24,790 nucleotides of DNA from Candidatus Methanomethylophilaceae archaeon (lineage in GTDB: Archaea > Thermoplasmatota > Thermoplasmata > Methanomassiliicoccales > Methanomethylophilaceae): positions 1 to 24,790 of the forward strand of contig JBAZDV010000001.1 of assembly GCA_041654195.1 (NCBI GenBank), written 5' to 3'. The first letter of the stretch is position 1. Every line of letters starts with the position of its first letter. Below, in pieces: positions 19,045-23,677 of this stretch. The notes under the pieces were generated by a model. It had not been told where the DNA came from. It saw nothing but the letters and a program-made list of their open reading frames with translations, and ran no database searches. Made by a program: the position numbers and the translations under genes.

Positions 19045-19298
19045 CGTTCTTTCACCCCAATATGTCAGACAATCGTTTACCTTTATATCTAATCTGCGAT
19101 ATTTAAAGCCATTTTAAATTGGAAAATCAGATGGGATCAAACAAAAAGTATAATCTCAACTTCATTGGCATGTTTTATTTCTAATGTGGTCTGGCACTTT
19201 ATCATCATTAATGCGCAGTGGAATCAAGGATGAAAATATAGACGAACAATAAAAATTTGAATTGAAAAAGGTTTATTTTGTCAGGGACCAACTTTTGA

Positions 19299-19610
19299 TC
19301 ATCCGAACAAGGCGCTAAGACCTGCTGCAGCCTCTTCTTCACTGACTGCTTCTACTTCCTTCTTCTCTGCGGCTGCGGGTGCGGCTGCGGAAGAAGCTGC
19401 GGGAGCTGCGGCGGCTGCGGGTGCGGCTGCCATAACAGAGGCGCTTGCGATGGCCTCTTTGATGTTAACTCCCTCAAGGGATGCGGTCAGAGCTTTGATC
19501 TTGGCTGCGTCAGCGTTCACTCCTGCGGCTTTGAGAATTGCTGCGATAGCATCCTCAGTAATGTCTTTGCCTGCAGAGTAAAGCACCATTGCGCTGTAGA
19601 TATACTCCAT
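19299..19610 (-). CDS. rpl12: Ribosomal stalk protein P1 (aL12)
   Basis: [15 protein letters not shown], an Ala-rich hinge and an [13 protein letters not shown] tail. AGGAGG SD supports ATG 19610. Confidence 0.96.
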
Positions 19611-19631
19611 TGTATTCAACCTCCTATATTT

Positions 19632-20636
19632 TTAGCCGAATAATGCACTCAGGCCAGCTGCTGCTTCTTCTTCGCTGACCTGTTCTTCTTTCTCTTCGAC
19701 GTCCTTCTTATCATTAGCATGTGTCGTTGCGGGTGCAGCGACGGCGGTCACAGCAGTAGCACTTAACCTTGCGGCTATGGTGTCGTTGCTGTATCCAGCT
19801 GTAGATGCGAGAGCGAGCATTTGTCTGTCCGCTTTCGAAAGGAGCATCTCGATGTTGTCTCTGGTTGGTATCGCGGCCGATATCGAGAGGCCCAAAGCCT
19901 CCCTGAACGCCTTTGCAATGAGTGGCACGATCGTTTCCTCTGTGGGGAATGCGATAGAAACACCCAACGCGCGAGCGTTGAATACAGCCGTAGCGAACAT
20001 ATCAGAATAGTAGTTGTCCGGAATGTCAAGAACGTCCCTGTGGTAAATGAGTCCTTTTTCGTAAGCGGCCCTAAGGTCTAGTCCTACGATCATGGGCAAA
20101 ATCTCCAATTTGGGGAGCATTGCTGCAACATTGGCAGGAACGGGTTCTCCCGCTTTTACCAGTGTCGTATCCTTTTTAACTGCTATTTTTCCTGCCTCAA
20201 TTGCGGCAGGAAGGCCTAATTTTTGAAGATCTCCGATGATTGGTCCTGGTCCGAACGGAGTCGGTCCTTTTGGAACAATGATATCGAAAGGTGCGATCTC
20301 TCCTGCTTTTGCGGGCGCTGGAGCCTTTGTTGCTTCAAGCTGTTTGAACAGCATGAACGGATTGAGGTCCGTCGCAATCAAAGCGCATTGTCCGTAAATC
20401 TCAGATTTCAAGTCATTGAGTGCTGGTTTCTCTTTAGCGGCGATATCGAGTGCCAAGAGCGCTAAATTGTTCTTGGTCATTTTGAGAGTCGCGTGCTTTC
20501 TGAGTCCTGCCCTCATGGACTGGATCTGTTGACCGCCAATCCCGTGTACATCCACTACGGCTACTATGGGTTTATCGATCAATTCTTGGGCGAGTTCATT
20601 CACCAGATCTTTTTTCCAAGCTGCGACGTGTGCCAT
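19632..20636 (-). CDS. rpl10: Ribosomal protein uL10 (P0)
   Basis: MAHVAAWKKDLV, KMTKNNL, GPTPFGPGP, three C-terminal helical repeats and a GLSALFG tail. Confidence 0.96.
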   Translation of the reverse strand: MAHVAAWKKDLVNELAQELIDKPIVAVVDVHGIGGQQIQSMRAGLRKHATLKMTKNNLALLALDIAAKEKPALNDLKSEIYGQCALIATDLNPFMLFKQLEATKAPAPAKAGEIAPFDIIVPKGPTPFGPGPIIGDLQKLGLPAAIEAGKIAVKKDTTLVKAGEPVPANVAAMLPKLEILPMIVGLDLRAAYEKGLIYHRDVLDIPDNYYSDMFATAVFNARALGVSIAFPTEETIVPLIAKAFREALGLSISAAIPTRDNIEMLLSKADRQMLALASTAGYSNDTIAARLSATAVTAVAAPATTHANDKKDVEEKEEQVSEEEAAAGLSALFG

Positions 20637-20648
20637 CTTCGAACCTCC

Positions 20649-21287
20649 TCAAATCAACCTCTCAGACGGTCCCATGGTCGTCTTGACATAAGATGAAGCG
20701 ATGTTCATCCTTCCCTTTTCAAGCTTCAGTTCGACACGTTTGAGAACGGTCTCAATGTTGTCAGCGATCTGCTCGGCGGTCATGTCTACGGTTCCAACGG
20801 GCGTATGGAAGGTCATTCTGTCTTTTGTTCTAACAGAAACAGTCTTTCGGAAATTCTCAATCAATCCAGTAGGATCTACTCCTGGCGGGATTGGCTTGGG
20901 CATCTTTCCGCGAGGACCGAGAACCGTACCGAGTCTCTTACCAACAGCGGCCATTAATGGCGCTTCGGCAATGAAATAATCAGTCTGGTTTGCGATCTTT
21001 TTTGCCTGCTTCTTGTTGTCCGCGAGACTCTGGAGTTCTTCCGGAGTGATCACGGTGTCGGCAACGTCTTTGGCTTTCAAGGCAAGTTCGCCACCACCAA
21101 TCACGCAGACGTGAACTGCTCTCCCACGACCGTGTGGCAGGATGACATCATCCGTAATACGGTTTTTGGGAACACTCAGATCGACATCTTTGAGATTGAT
21201 GGCCAACTCAACCGTCTCAGTAAAATTGCGCTTCTTCGCACTGTCGAGTGCTTTCTGCACAGCCATTACGGTTGGTTTTTCTGCCAA
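20649..21287 (-). CDS. rpl1: Ribosomal protein uL1
   Basis: KKRNFTETVELAINLKD, LGTVLGPRGKMP and VKTTMGP motifs. TTG start with a GAGGAGG SD at 21295-21301. Confidence 0.97.
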   Translation of the reverse strand: MAEKPTVMAVQKALDSAKKRNFTETVELAINLKDVDLSVPKNRITDDVILPHGRGRAVHVCVIGGGELALKAKDVADTVITPEELQSLADNKKQAKKIANQTDYFIAEAPLMAAVGKRLGTVLGPRGKMPKPIPPGVDPTGLIENFRKTVSVRTKDRMTFHTPVGTVDMTAEQIADNIETVLKRVELKLEKGRMNIASSYVKTTMGPSERLI

Positions 21288-21301
21288 TATAATTCCTCCT
21301 C

Positions 21302-21332
21302 GTAGTGCATGCGAACCCGAAGGTTCTCCTAC
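21302..21332 (-). promoter_or_regulatory. Candidate uL1-binding autoregulatory leader RNA
   Basis: The minus strand reads GUAG-GAG-AACC-UUCG-GGUU-CGC-AUGCA-CUAC, two helices flanking an asymmetric GAG/CGC internal loop. It abuts the rpl1 SD. Confidence 0.75.
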
Positions 21333-21358
21333 AAGTATGGCGTCCTAACAAGGGAGTG

Positions 21359-21366
21359 ATATATAA
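21359..21366 (-). promoter_or_regulatory. TATA box of the rpl1-rpl10-rpl12 operon
   Basis: Minus-strand TTATATAT lies 26 nt upstream of the leader hairpin. Confidence 0.6.
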
Positions 21367-21381
21367 GGTTTGAGGGGGTCT

Positions 21382-22383
21382 TTAAAGGGAGTAATAACGA
21401 CCGTACACGGGAATATTACTAATGGAGATATAAGCGTCGAGATTCGTATTGGTCACATCTAATGTCAAAGTATATGACGACCATCCATCGACTGTCTCCG
21501 TCACCGTGACGAAATTATTCGTTTCGTATGATATTCCAGAGGCGATCGTCTGTGCCAGATATTTATGGGTATCGCTTATGACATCTCCGCCGAATACGCA
21601 TATCATCCCTGTGCCGTTGTAATACTTTGTGAGACTGACGCTGCTAAAACCGTTTTTGACAAAACCGATGTCGATCGAGTACGGAACATCGGTGCTGATC
21701 CCGAAAGTGGATTCGTTGTACATTATGTTCAGTGCCGATCCGATATCTCTCTCCGAATCAGGATCAGAACCGAATGCGGTGTTCGAATTTATGGCTCCGG
21801 TCATGTTGAAGAACAATATGTCGTAATTTTCAATCTCTGACAAAGGTTCTGCGGATGTTGTATCATGTGCCGAATATTTACCGATCGCATCATAGATCCA
21901 GTAAATGCTTCCCCCATCGGATAACCAGTTGAACAGTATATCGTCCTCGTCTCCAGTATATACGGTGTCTGGGAATGCGCCCGTCATCATTATGATAGCA
22001 TATCCTTCGGAATGTGTGGAATTCATCAGTGTTCCAAGCAAAAGGGCATCGCATATGGTGACCGTAAAGCCTCTTATTTCCAGCTCTTGTTCAAGGTCCG
22101 AGATTTTTTCCTCGATCTCCTCATGTGTTGTGTTAACGACAGCATAGCTCTCATCGAAATAGACATACAGATGTTCTATGCCTGAGAAATCGCCGTTATC
22201 GAACAAAGACAGGGTATATTTGTTTGGAACGGAGGAATATACATTGAATGTTATACTGTCATCGTCGATTTCAACATTCGAGTCGTAGGTATACGGGGAC
22301 ACCCAGTAAACGGAGACCTGTCCAACCATGATCACAGCTACCAGTATTATGGCGGTCAATAACGTAAGATCAATTCTCTTCAT
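21382..22383 (-). CDS. Hypothetical membrane-anchored/secreted acidic protein (333 aa)
   Basis: Start set to ATG 22383 after a GGAGG SD. MKRIDLT is followed by a hydrophobic helix and a D/E-rich ectodomain. Overlaps the upstream gene by 14 nt. Confidence 0.8.
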   Translation of the reverse strand: MKRIDLTLLTAIILVAVIMVGQVSVYWVSPYTYDSNVEIDDDSITFNVYSSVPNKYTLSLFDNGDFSGIEHLYVYFDESYAVVNTTHEEIEEKISDLEQELEIRGFTVTICDALLLGTLMNSTHSEGYAIIMMTGAFPDTVYTGDEDDILFNWLSDGGSIYWIYDAIGKYSAHDTTSAEPLSEIENYDILFFNMTGAINSNTAFGSDPDSERDIGSALNIMYNESTFGISTDVPYSIDIGFVKNGFSSVSLTKYYNGTGMICVFGGDVISDTHKYLAQTIASGISYETNNFVTVTETVDGWSSYTLTLDVTNTNLDAYISISNIPVYGRYYSL

Positions 22384-23677
22384 CGGGCCTCCGTCTGAAT
22401 AGGGAACTATGATATGCCATGTCCAGGAGGAAAATCCAGATCCCTGATGTTCCAATGATCTTGAGGGGAATTGTGTCCTCTATGGCAACCGTATTTGCCA
22501 ATTCGACAAGATGATTCAAGTTCAGCATGTTGGTGTTGACGGCAAATGTGTATAGGAAAGGGATCGGGTTACCGAATATGACCACGACATACGCGATGGA
22601 CATGAGAAGGAGGGGAAAGACGTATCTCAGGTTTCTTGCGGCGATACAATATGCGAATGCTGGAATCGCAAAGACATAGTATGATGGTGAACCGGCGGGA
22701 ACCATTAGAACGACCGTCATCGTCAGTAAGGATACCATGAAAAAACACGAGTTCAATTCATCGGCCCTGTGATTTTTGGCATAGAAATAAAGCAAGAAGC
22801 CCATCATTATCGCAAAGACGATTACCATCGGTTGCAATATCACGAATGCCGAATAATCCATCACGATTCCGGAATCGACCGTGCCGAATCTTTCGGTTAT
22901 ACCTTTGAATATGTTGTTGGTCGATCCGTAGAATATCTGCGGTATGCAGATCATGATGAAGGTTATTATCGCGGCAACTATGCTTGTCGAAAGGTTGGTG
23001 AGGCCGGTTTTCAATGAGTCACGATTTTTGATCAGGACGTAAGATACCAGCACGAACATAATGTAGACAGGGAACACTTTCGTACATACTGCCAGTGAGA
23101 AGGCCATACCGGCCAAGGCATATCTGTCCTTGGAAACGAACAGCAATGTCAAAAGCATAAAAATCACGGCAACGGATTCGAACATGGTCGATGCACACGA
23201 AACAACGAAGACCAACGGACATAGGAACCATACTGCAAAACCGACGGTGGCCTTCTTTTCATCATTTGTCGAGATCATCACGATCTTGTAGATGAGCAAT
23301 CCTGCGATGAGGTCCATCAGTGTCAAGAAGCCCTTCAAAAGAGCCAAATATGCGAATGTCGGGGTCCACATGTAGCCGTAACTGTCCGCGACGAGGATCA
23401 TCGAATCAGGATTCAGTGAAAATATCTCGATACCAAAAATATATTTTCCGACACTCATTATCGAGGAAAGCAGATATCCCCATATCGGCGGATAGTAATA
23501 ACCGGGTACTCCATAGAGCCCGAATTCTGAAGCGATGTTCGCAGACACCCTTATCCAGTGGCTTGTGTCATAGACAAGCGTGAGAAAGATACCGATCACA
23601 ATCCTGATGGCAATGCCTATTATGCAGATCTGCACGATTCTGTTGGACAGGACGGAACGGGTTCTTTCCACAAACAT
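22370..23677 (-). CDS. Multi-pass GT-C fold glycosyltransferase (GT87/PIG-M-like)
   Basis: About 10 or more TM segments. The first loop YDTSHW...GLYGVPGYYYPPIWGY, then D..A.LLIY, WFLCP and K.FP patterns. Confidence 0.75.
   Translation of the reverse strand: MFVERTRSVLSNRIVQICIIGIAIRIVIGIFLTLVYDTSHWIRVSANIASEFGLYGVPGYYYPPIWGYLLSSIMSVGKYIFGIEIFSLNPDSMILVADSYGYMWTPTFAYLALLKGFLTLMDLIAGLLIYKIVMISTNDEKKATVGFAVWFLCPLVFVVSCASTMFESVAVIFMLLTLLFVSKDRYALAGMAFSLAVCTKVFPVYIMFVLVSYVLIKNRDSLKTGLTNLSTSIVAAIITFIMICIPQIFYGSTNNIFKGITERFGTVDSGIVMDYSAFVILQPMVIVFAIMMGFLLYFYAKNHRADELNSCFFMVSLLTMTVVLMVPAGSPSYYVFAIPAFAYCIAARNLRYVFPLLLMSIAYVVVIFGNPIPFLYTFAVNTNMLNLNHLVELANTVAIEDTIPLKIIGTSGIWIFLLDMAYHSSLFRRRPDEEN

Follow-up and report, generated by a model that had tools for sequence, protein, structure and literature searches.

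Autoregulation of ribosomal protein uL1 through an rRNA-like site in its own mRNA is textbook knowledge. Among archaea, this site is said to lie in the mRNA leader in Archaeoglobus fulgidus and reportedly also in halophilic species, and to be found in Methanococcus within the coding region of rpl1, some 30 nt downstream of the AUG. The step blocked by Methanococcus L1 is given, in the title of the study concerned, as lying at or before the first peptide bond (Mayer et al. 1998). The mRNAs that bind L1 present a short irregular stem with an internal bulge, in which a G-A pair can potentially form and one A stays unpaired; the pairs flanking this bulge are critical for L1 binding, and G-to-A changes at the junction abolish binding in the nM range (PMC3616713). 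Sites located directly 5' of rplA bind L1 with nM affinity (PMC3616713; PMC10931766). Such rplA-preceding sites occur in Actinobacteria, Cyanobacteria and Chloroflexi, and as a second site in Firmicutes, Thermus and Thermotoga (PMC3616713, PMC10931766). The rRNA and mRNA sites of L1 are interchangeable between bacteria and archaea (PMC1920258; PMC10931766). Few cis-regulatory RNAs are documented in archaea (PMC7247131); the supplements of the latter study contain no L1 entry, and our literature search found no L1 site for Thermoplasmatota or Methanomassiliicoccales.

The rpl1 operon and its leader

The window (the whole stretch of 24,790 nucleotides that was analysed) carries the genes of uL1, uL10 and the P1 stalk protein on its minus strand, preceded by a short leader in which a hairpin made of two helices, P1 and P2, lies next to the Shine-Dalgarno sequence (SD). 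In the order of transcription, the features of the locus are as follows.

21366-21359, minus strand: TATA box TTATATAT of the rpl1 operon promoter, read directly
21335-21337, minus strand: transcription start as predicted from the TATA-to-P1 spacing, near A21336, where P1 begins
21329-21335, minus strand: 5' strand of P1, CUUGUAG, from the minimum free energy (MFE) fold, RNAalifold and pair counts
21327-21328, minus strand: 5' bulge GA, a candidate non-canonical G-A partner followed by an unpaired A
21313-21326, minus strand: P2 hairpin GAACC-UUCG-GGUUC, in which the first G-C pair is invariant and pairs 2-4 covary
21306-21312, minus strand: 3' internal loop GCAUGCA, 7 nt, ending in the invariant A21306
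21299-21305, minus strand: 3' strand of P1, CUACGAG, which shares its final two bases with the beginning of the SD
21295-21300, minus strand: Shine-Dalgarno sequence AGGAGG, read directly, 7 nt 5' of the start codon
21285-21287, minus strand: UUG start codon of rpl1, from the ORF list
20649-21287, minus strand: rpl1 (uL1), the presumed repressor (PF00687, E 3e-53)
19632-20636, minus strand: rpl10 (uL10/P0), identified by Pfam, with an SD overlapping the rpl1 stop codon (UGAGGAGGU)
19299-19619, minus strand: rpl12 (P1 stalk protein), identified by Pfam, 12 nt after rpl10
19251-19269, minus strand: two T5 runs 3' of rpl12, read directly, the likely operon terminator

The original prediction had placed the leader between a TATA box and a weak UUG start, and this layout holds, the TATA box being at 21366-21359 and the UUG belonging to a uL1 gene confirmed by Pfam and followed by rpl10 and rpl12. 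The RNA quoted at that stage (GUAG-GAG-AACC-UUCG-GGUU-CGC-AUGCA-CUAC-GAGGAGG) is found letter for letter between 21332 and 21295 of the minus strand. The encoded uL1 is canonical and close to L1 proteins whose structures have been solved with RNA, its PDB matches including M. jannaschii L1 (1cjs/1i2a/1u63, E 5e-58); we take 1U63 to be a complex of M. jannaschii L1 with mRNA, and 1ZHO and 2HW8 are presumably L1–mRNA complexes as well. Oligo-T is a known termination signal in archaea, and the function proposed for the T5 runs downstream of rpl12 is deduced from this. A scan for sigma-70 promoters and terminators, a method that is not applicable to archaea, gave nothing useful in the window.

The first base of an archaeal TATA box usually lies near position -30. 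In the window, 23 nt separate the TATA box from the 5' strand of P1, and this geometry is a general one: when 93 distinct Methanomassiliicoccales loci were surveyed, the TATA 8-mer began 33-35 nt 5' of the G of GUAG in 83 of the 88 loci with a good TATA box (at least 7/8 matches to TTTAWATA). From this fixed spacing and the usual archaeal geometry, we infer that +1 lies at about 21336, at the foot of P1, which would give a leader of about 49 nt with the operator at its very 5' end. The translation signals are also constant, rpl1 starting with TTG in 93/93 distinct Methanomassiliicoccales loci and the GGAGG of the SD being kept in 29/29 order-level leaders.

In this genome the operon lies apart from rpl11, as originally predicted: the ORF upstream of it is not L11, and the L11 matches are on contigs C2 and C259. 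Since many related families have an apparent rpl11 directly upstream, with the TATA box inside its 3' end, the stand-alone layout is a family feature and not part of the mechanism. At a number of loci (L046, L068, L024, L025, L029, L031, L167, L171 and others), the end of the upstream gene reads, by eye, like the C-terminus of L11. A TATA-like AAGCTTATAAAG is embedded in the last codons of this L11-like gene (L046, L068 etc.), and in L046 and L068 its distance to the hairpin equals that found in the window, suggesting the existence of an internal promoter within the 3' end of the upstream gene.

Three further observations concern the surroundings of the operon and the assembly. The upstream ORF (21382-22455, minus strand, 357 aa) has no Pfam match. 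The next one (22370-23677, minus strand, 435 aa), which as listed overlaps it by 86 nt, has a weak match to the ALG6/ALG8 glycosyltransferases (E 2.7e-6). Finally, contig C259 of the same assembly (G000) carries a second L11–L1 gene pair (C259:102-990, locus L206), the L1 of which is only 32% identical to the uL1 of the window; C259 probably stems from another organism and contaminates the assembly, for which contamination is estimated at 1.85%.

Structure, conservation and range of the hairpin

The two-helix hairpin spans 21335-21299 on the minus strand and ends 12 nt 5' of the rpl1 UUG in the window. The original prediction was right about the two helices and the asymmetric loop between them, but not about the loop itself, which had been given as GAG/CGC: since the comparative structure pairs G21326 with C21313, the loop consists of GA on the 5' side and GCAUGCA on the 3' side. 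Similarly, the element does abut the SD, but its outer helix is longer than was described (CUUGUAG/CUACGAG) and reaches 2 nt into AGGAGG. Taken as a single sequence, the leader folds with -17.4 kcal/mol (z -1.79), and 12/200 shuffled sequences fold as well; the folding energy alone is thus unremarkable, and the support for the structure is comparative. Rfam gave no match in the whole window at gathering thresholds and, at E<=10 over 21100-21500, returned four chance miRNA/snoRNA matches only. A kink-turn of the kind found in L7Ae leaders (a 3-nt bulge, then tandem sheared G-A/A-G pairs) was also considered and rejected: no AG faces the GA on the 3' strand, as read from the sequence, and the base after the GA sits in an invariant Watson-Crick G-C pair.

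A uL1 gene was located in 39 of 41 relatives, and 28 of these, together with the window, carry the element at the equivalent place. The 28 element-bearing relatives represent seven families of one order, the near ones being Methanomassiliicoccales/Methanomethylophilaceae MAGs from gut, rumen and termite. RNAalifold recovered both helices from a structure-blind MAFFT alignment of the 29 Methanomassiliicoccales leaders (A1, seven families), in which 96% of the 321 pair cells are standard pairs, as against 27-47% in slid controls, and 5/12 pairs show compensatory change. A model-fitted phylum-wide alignment (A5, 57 sequences) is 93% paired and displays strong covariation in P2, namely AU 33/GC 22 at pair 2, GC 42/AU 5 at pair 3 and CG 22/GC 9/AU 5/UA 4 at pair 4; this alignment leans towards its model and the sequences are related, so that these counts overstate the number of independent events. 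Altogether, compensatory change affects 5-6 of the 12 pairs across the alignments.

The length and loop of P2 vary freely and the outer pairs of P1 covary (UA/CG/UG), with an invariant GUAG core in the 29 order-level leaders. The other invariant bases are those of the junction: the G-C pair that closes P1, the bulge A, the G-C pair that opens P2 and the A with which the 3' loop ends. The base before the bulge A is a G in most lineages and an A or a U in a few. Overall, the sets of 29 and 57 sequences show little or no variation in the GA bulge, the terminal A of the loop and the two flanking G-C pairs. The 3' loop measures 5-8 nt in most lineages and is longer, with an extra hairpin, in some. 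Aligned with relatives and checked for covariation, a course already proposed with the original prediction, the leader thus proves to be a conserved, covarying two-helix RNA across Methanomassiliicoccales and beyond.

A covariance model of the 37-nt core (R1) had one real match in the 1.45 Mb assembly to which the window belongs (52.7 bits, E 6e-13); the next match (contig C181, E 0.16) lies inside an ORF, contains a 52-nt insert and was set aside as due to chance. In the phylum sample, for which the L1 tally is 150/151 with G118 included, R1 matched 32 of the 151 genomes, exactly once each, and 32/32 matches sit 9-20 nt 5' of the rpl1 start of the genome concerned. A looser descriptor was applied to the rpl1 upstream regions of 40 genomes at class level, from 24 families, and of another 31 at phylum level. 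It specifies (i) a P1 with four or more base pairs, the closing one being G-C, followed by a two-base bulge ending in A; (ii) a P2 that opens with G and closes with C, and a 3' loop of 3-13 nt whose last base is A; (iii) an element ending 5-25 nt before the start codon. The descriptor matched at the SD in 34/40 class-level loci and in 17/31 further phylum-level loci, compared with 73/3550 shuffled sequences (2.1%) when the position is imposed; without the position it is unspecific, with 45 matches in the 2 x 24.8 kb of the window and a match somewhere in 19% of the shuffles. Several further loci carry an element with a longer 3' loop or an extra hairpin, beyond the reach of the descriptor.

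These data bear directly on the idea that the hairpin is a chance fold in a short spacer, conserved through promoter and SD constraints only. A z-score of only -1.79 and the abundance of matches to the loose descriptor would fit such an idea, but compensatory change in five to six pairs, 93-96% pairing against about 40% in slid controls, and a position fixed across the phylum against 2% in shuffles do not: the comparative data effectively refute it.

The element was not detected in family f14, in the part of f22 where an L11-like ORF directly precedes rpl1, in f32, f41, f52 and f61, or in f38, f39 and f44 (one locus each). In loci of f32, f41, f52 and f61 (L175, L176, L184, L185, L196, L201), a TATA box is present about 25 nt before the ATG, which suggests that the rpl1 mRNA is leaderless in these four families; inspection by eye of L175 and L176 revealed no in-ORF site of the Methanococcus type. 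The relocation of the operator to a 5' UTR in this lineage, as originally proposed, is not supported: the leader element is present in nearly all class families sampled and in many further families of the phylum. Because the element stands just before rpl1 across class and phylum, the leader position would be ancestral for the group, not the outcome of a local relocation, and the sequences suggest that it is usual in this part of Archaea, unlike the in-ORF position studied in Methanococcus.

Two side observations were made during these searches. First, L179, L180, L186, L195, L199, L205, L069 and L073 have an enlarged 3' internal loop, of 17-26 nt or more; several of these expanded loops (e.g. 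L179, L195 and L199) look able to form a small hairpin of their own, and they recall the longer connecting loop of the rRNA site. Second, rpl1 loci of the Methanomethylophilaceae type, 78-82% identical, are found in records with bacterial titles (L079, L081, L087, L095-L097, L100, L101, L124, L130, L135 and L143), among them Bacteroides salyersiae, Dialister hominis, Prevotella hominis, Eggerthellaceae, Lachnospiraceae and others; these records look like mislabelled or chimeric bins.

The leader junction and the 23S L1 stalk

The L1 stalk of the 23S rRNA from two genomes of the same family (G008 and G003) reads GGCGG-GA-GACGUU...GAGUC-ACCGAUGAAACA-CCGCC. The leader and this H77/H78 region share G-GA-GA...UC...A-C, and six other Thermoplasmata rRNAs keep G-GA-[G/C]...ACA-C; the 23S counterpart of the 3' loop is 12 nt long and ends in ACA/AUA. 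In this comparison with the 23S site, which had been proposed with the original prediction, the invariant bases of the leader match the H77/H78 junction of G008 and G003; the helix sequences differ. More specifically, H78 is long in the 23S L1 stalk, the connecting loop measures 12 nt and H77 is GGCGG/CCGCC; their counterparts in the leader are a P2 of 5 bp, a loop of 7 nt and a P1 of GUAG/CUAC. Judged from these sequences, the leader copies the H77/H78 junction and not the helices, the apparent mimicry being limited to about nine junction bases.

The only 23S gene of this MAG is found on contig C39 (C39:3063-5989; G000, locus L001) and contains GGUAG-GA-GAUGUC...GGAGUC-ACAAUUGGGACA-CUACC; in it, GUAGGAGA and CACUAC match the leader exactly. 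We did not count this match as evidence, because the C39 23S is about 71% identical to same-family 23S, which are 92% identical to each other, and departs from stretches that are identical among the 8 other aligned Thermoplasmata 23S segments. C39 is almost certainly a mis-binned contig from another archaeon, the cognate rRNA of the MAG being missing, and the exact match was accordingly not taken for cognate mimicry. Note that R1, when run on the C39 23S, missed the rRNA site, the length of H78 and of the connecting loop being too great for the model.

The cognate H77 reads GGCGG/CCGCC or GGAAG/CUUCC, as opposed to the near-frozen GUAG/CUAC of P1 in the leaders. This P1 core is frozen across most of the phylum, and only the deep lineages f35 and f50 use an H77-like GCGG/CCGC. 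In the loci of these two families (L177, L178, L193, L194), P1 is GCGG/CCGC or GUGG/CCAC, thus H77-like, and the SD reads GAGGUGA. Since the GUAG/CUAC core is near-invariant across the phylum yet does not copy the cognate H77, sequence comparison indicates that something besides rRNA mimicry constrains P1. One tentative explanation, which we hold to be possible but rather unlikely, is that P1 has a second, sequence-specific function, in which case the operator would be a dual-purpose 5'-terminal element and not a plain rRNA mimic. Candidates for this function would be uL1 contacts made in the mRNA complex only, or a hairpin at +1 to +7 acting in initiation or 5'-end protection.

That rRNA mimicry does not explain the GUAG/CUAC invariance could also be turned into an argument for a protein-independent 5'-terminal hairpin, which would protect the mRNA end or tune access to the SD with no role for uL1; the hairpin is indeed predicted to begin at or beside +1 and overlaps the SD by 2 nt. 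However, a generic hairpin would need no invariant GA bulge, terminal loop A and closing pairs while the rest of P2 varies, and it would not occur once per genome, at rpl1 alone. Moreover, the invariant bases are precisely those common to the 23S L1 site. We regard this explanation as improbable.

The same junction helps to choose between ligands. By analogy with the bacterial leader of rplJL, to which L10(L12)4 binds, the operator might be recognized by the uL10(P0)-P1 stalk complex: rpl10 and rpl12 are co-transcribed with rpl1, and the bacterial L10 complex regulates its own operon via leader RNA (PMC3616713). But the element precedes rpl1, not rpl10, and its junction, as read, seems to match the L1-stalk site and not the uL10 site of the GTPase-associated centre (H42-44). 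In addition, L1 alone controls all three cistrons in Methanococcus, as far as the papers citing Hanner 1994 and Mayer 1998 relate. Recognition by the stalk complex thus seems very unlikely.

A putative uL1 operator and its known counterparts

We conclude that the hairpin is very probably the uL1 autoregulatory translational operator of the rpl1–rpl10–rpl12 operon. This reading rests on the invariant junction, the exclusive link to rpl1, the covariation, the identity with the 23S junction of family members and the published L1–RNA consensus. If it is correct, then uL1 present in excess over free 23S rRNA would bind its own mRNA at the 5' end, where the P1/GA-bulge/P2 junction putatively reproduces, in minimal form, that of H77/H78 in the L1 stalk; a G-A pair may actually form in the GA bulge. 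The bound protein would stabilize P1, which holds the first two bases of the SD, and would sit about four base pairs from the SD, so that the 30S subunit would be excluded from both the SD and the weak UUG. Because only two SD bases are paired, it is chiefly the bound protein that would have to bring about occlusion, and initiation would be sensitive to such a competition owing to the weakness of the UUG start. The predicted outcome is a fall in rpl1 translation and, since the SD of rpl10 overlaps the rpl1 stop codon, probably in rpl10 translation too, with rpl12 following through coupling. New rRNA, which would offer a stronger site, would titrate uL1 away and relieve the repression. Both overlaps, that of P1 with the SD and that of the rpl1 stop codon with the rpl10 SD, are consistent with uL1-dependent repression.

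Two aspects of this element may be new: its documentation in Methanomassiliicoccales and across the phylum, with covariation and no matching Rfam family, and the near-invariance of GUAG/CUAC in P1 across the phylum, out of step with the rRNA helix. As an archaeal uL1 leader that can be aligned and clearly covaries, the element could serve to found a family model and to better annotate genomes, since it occurs in Methanomassiliicoccales, which are methanogens of gut and rumen, and in most of their phylum. It also comes with natural variants for probing what uL1 needs: a P1 of either GUAG or GCGG, 3' loops that range from 5 to 25 nt, and lineages in which no leader element is detectable.

Among the known L1 sites, the bacterial RNA preceding rplA resembles the leader described here in being a short irregular stem-loop with a G-A and unpaired-A bulge before the L1 cistron. 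It belongs to another domain of life and to an rplK–rplA context, and with no Rfam family linking the two, the likeness is one of description. The sites reported for halophiles and Archaeoglobus fulgidus are like the present one in lying in the untranslated leader of an rpl1–rpl10–rpl12 transcript that starts downstream of rpl11; they belong to other euryarchaeal classes and are likened here by description, not by sequence. The operator bound by MvaL1 (Methanococcus vannielii, M. thermolithotrophicus, M. jannaschii) controls the same rpl1–rpl10–rpl12 operon and has the same architecture, with two helices and an asymmetric loop made of GA on the 5' side and 6-7 nt ending in A on the 3' side; the presumed ligand and the translational logic would also be common to both. 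The difference lies in the location, the MvaL1 site being in the rpl1 ORF and the present one in a 5' leader, where it overlaps the SD. Consistent with the original prediction, the rpl1 coding segment homologous to the Methanococcus site (GUG CAG AAA ... AAU UUU) cannot form the element, and neither R1 nor the descriptor has a match inside rpl1 (20649-21287). The mode of repression would differ accordingly between the two systems: occlusion of the SD here, and a block after 30S binding in Methanococcus.
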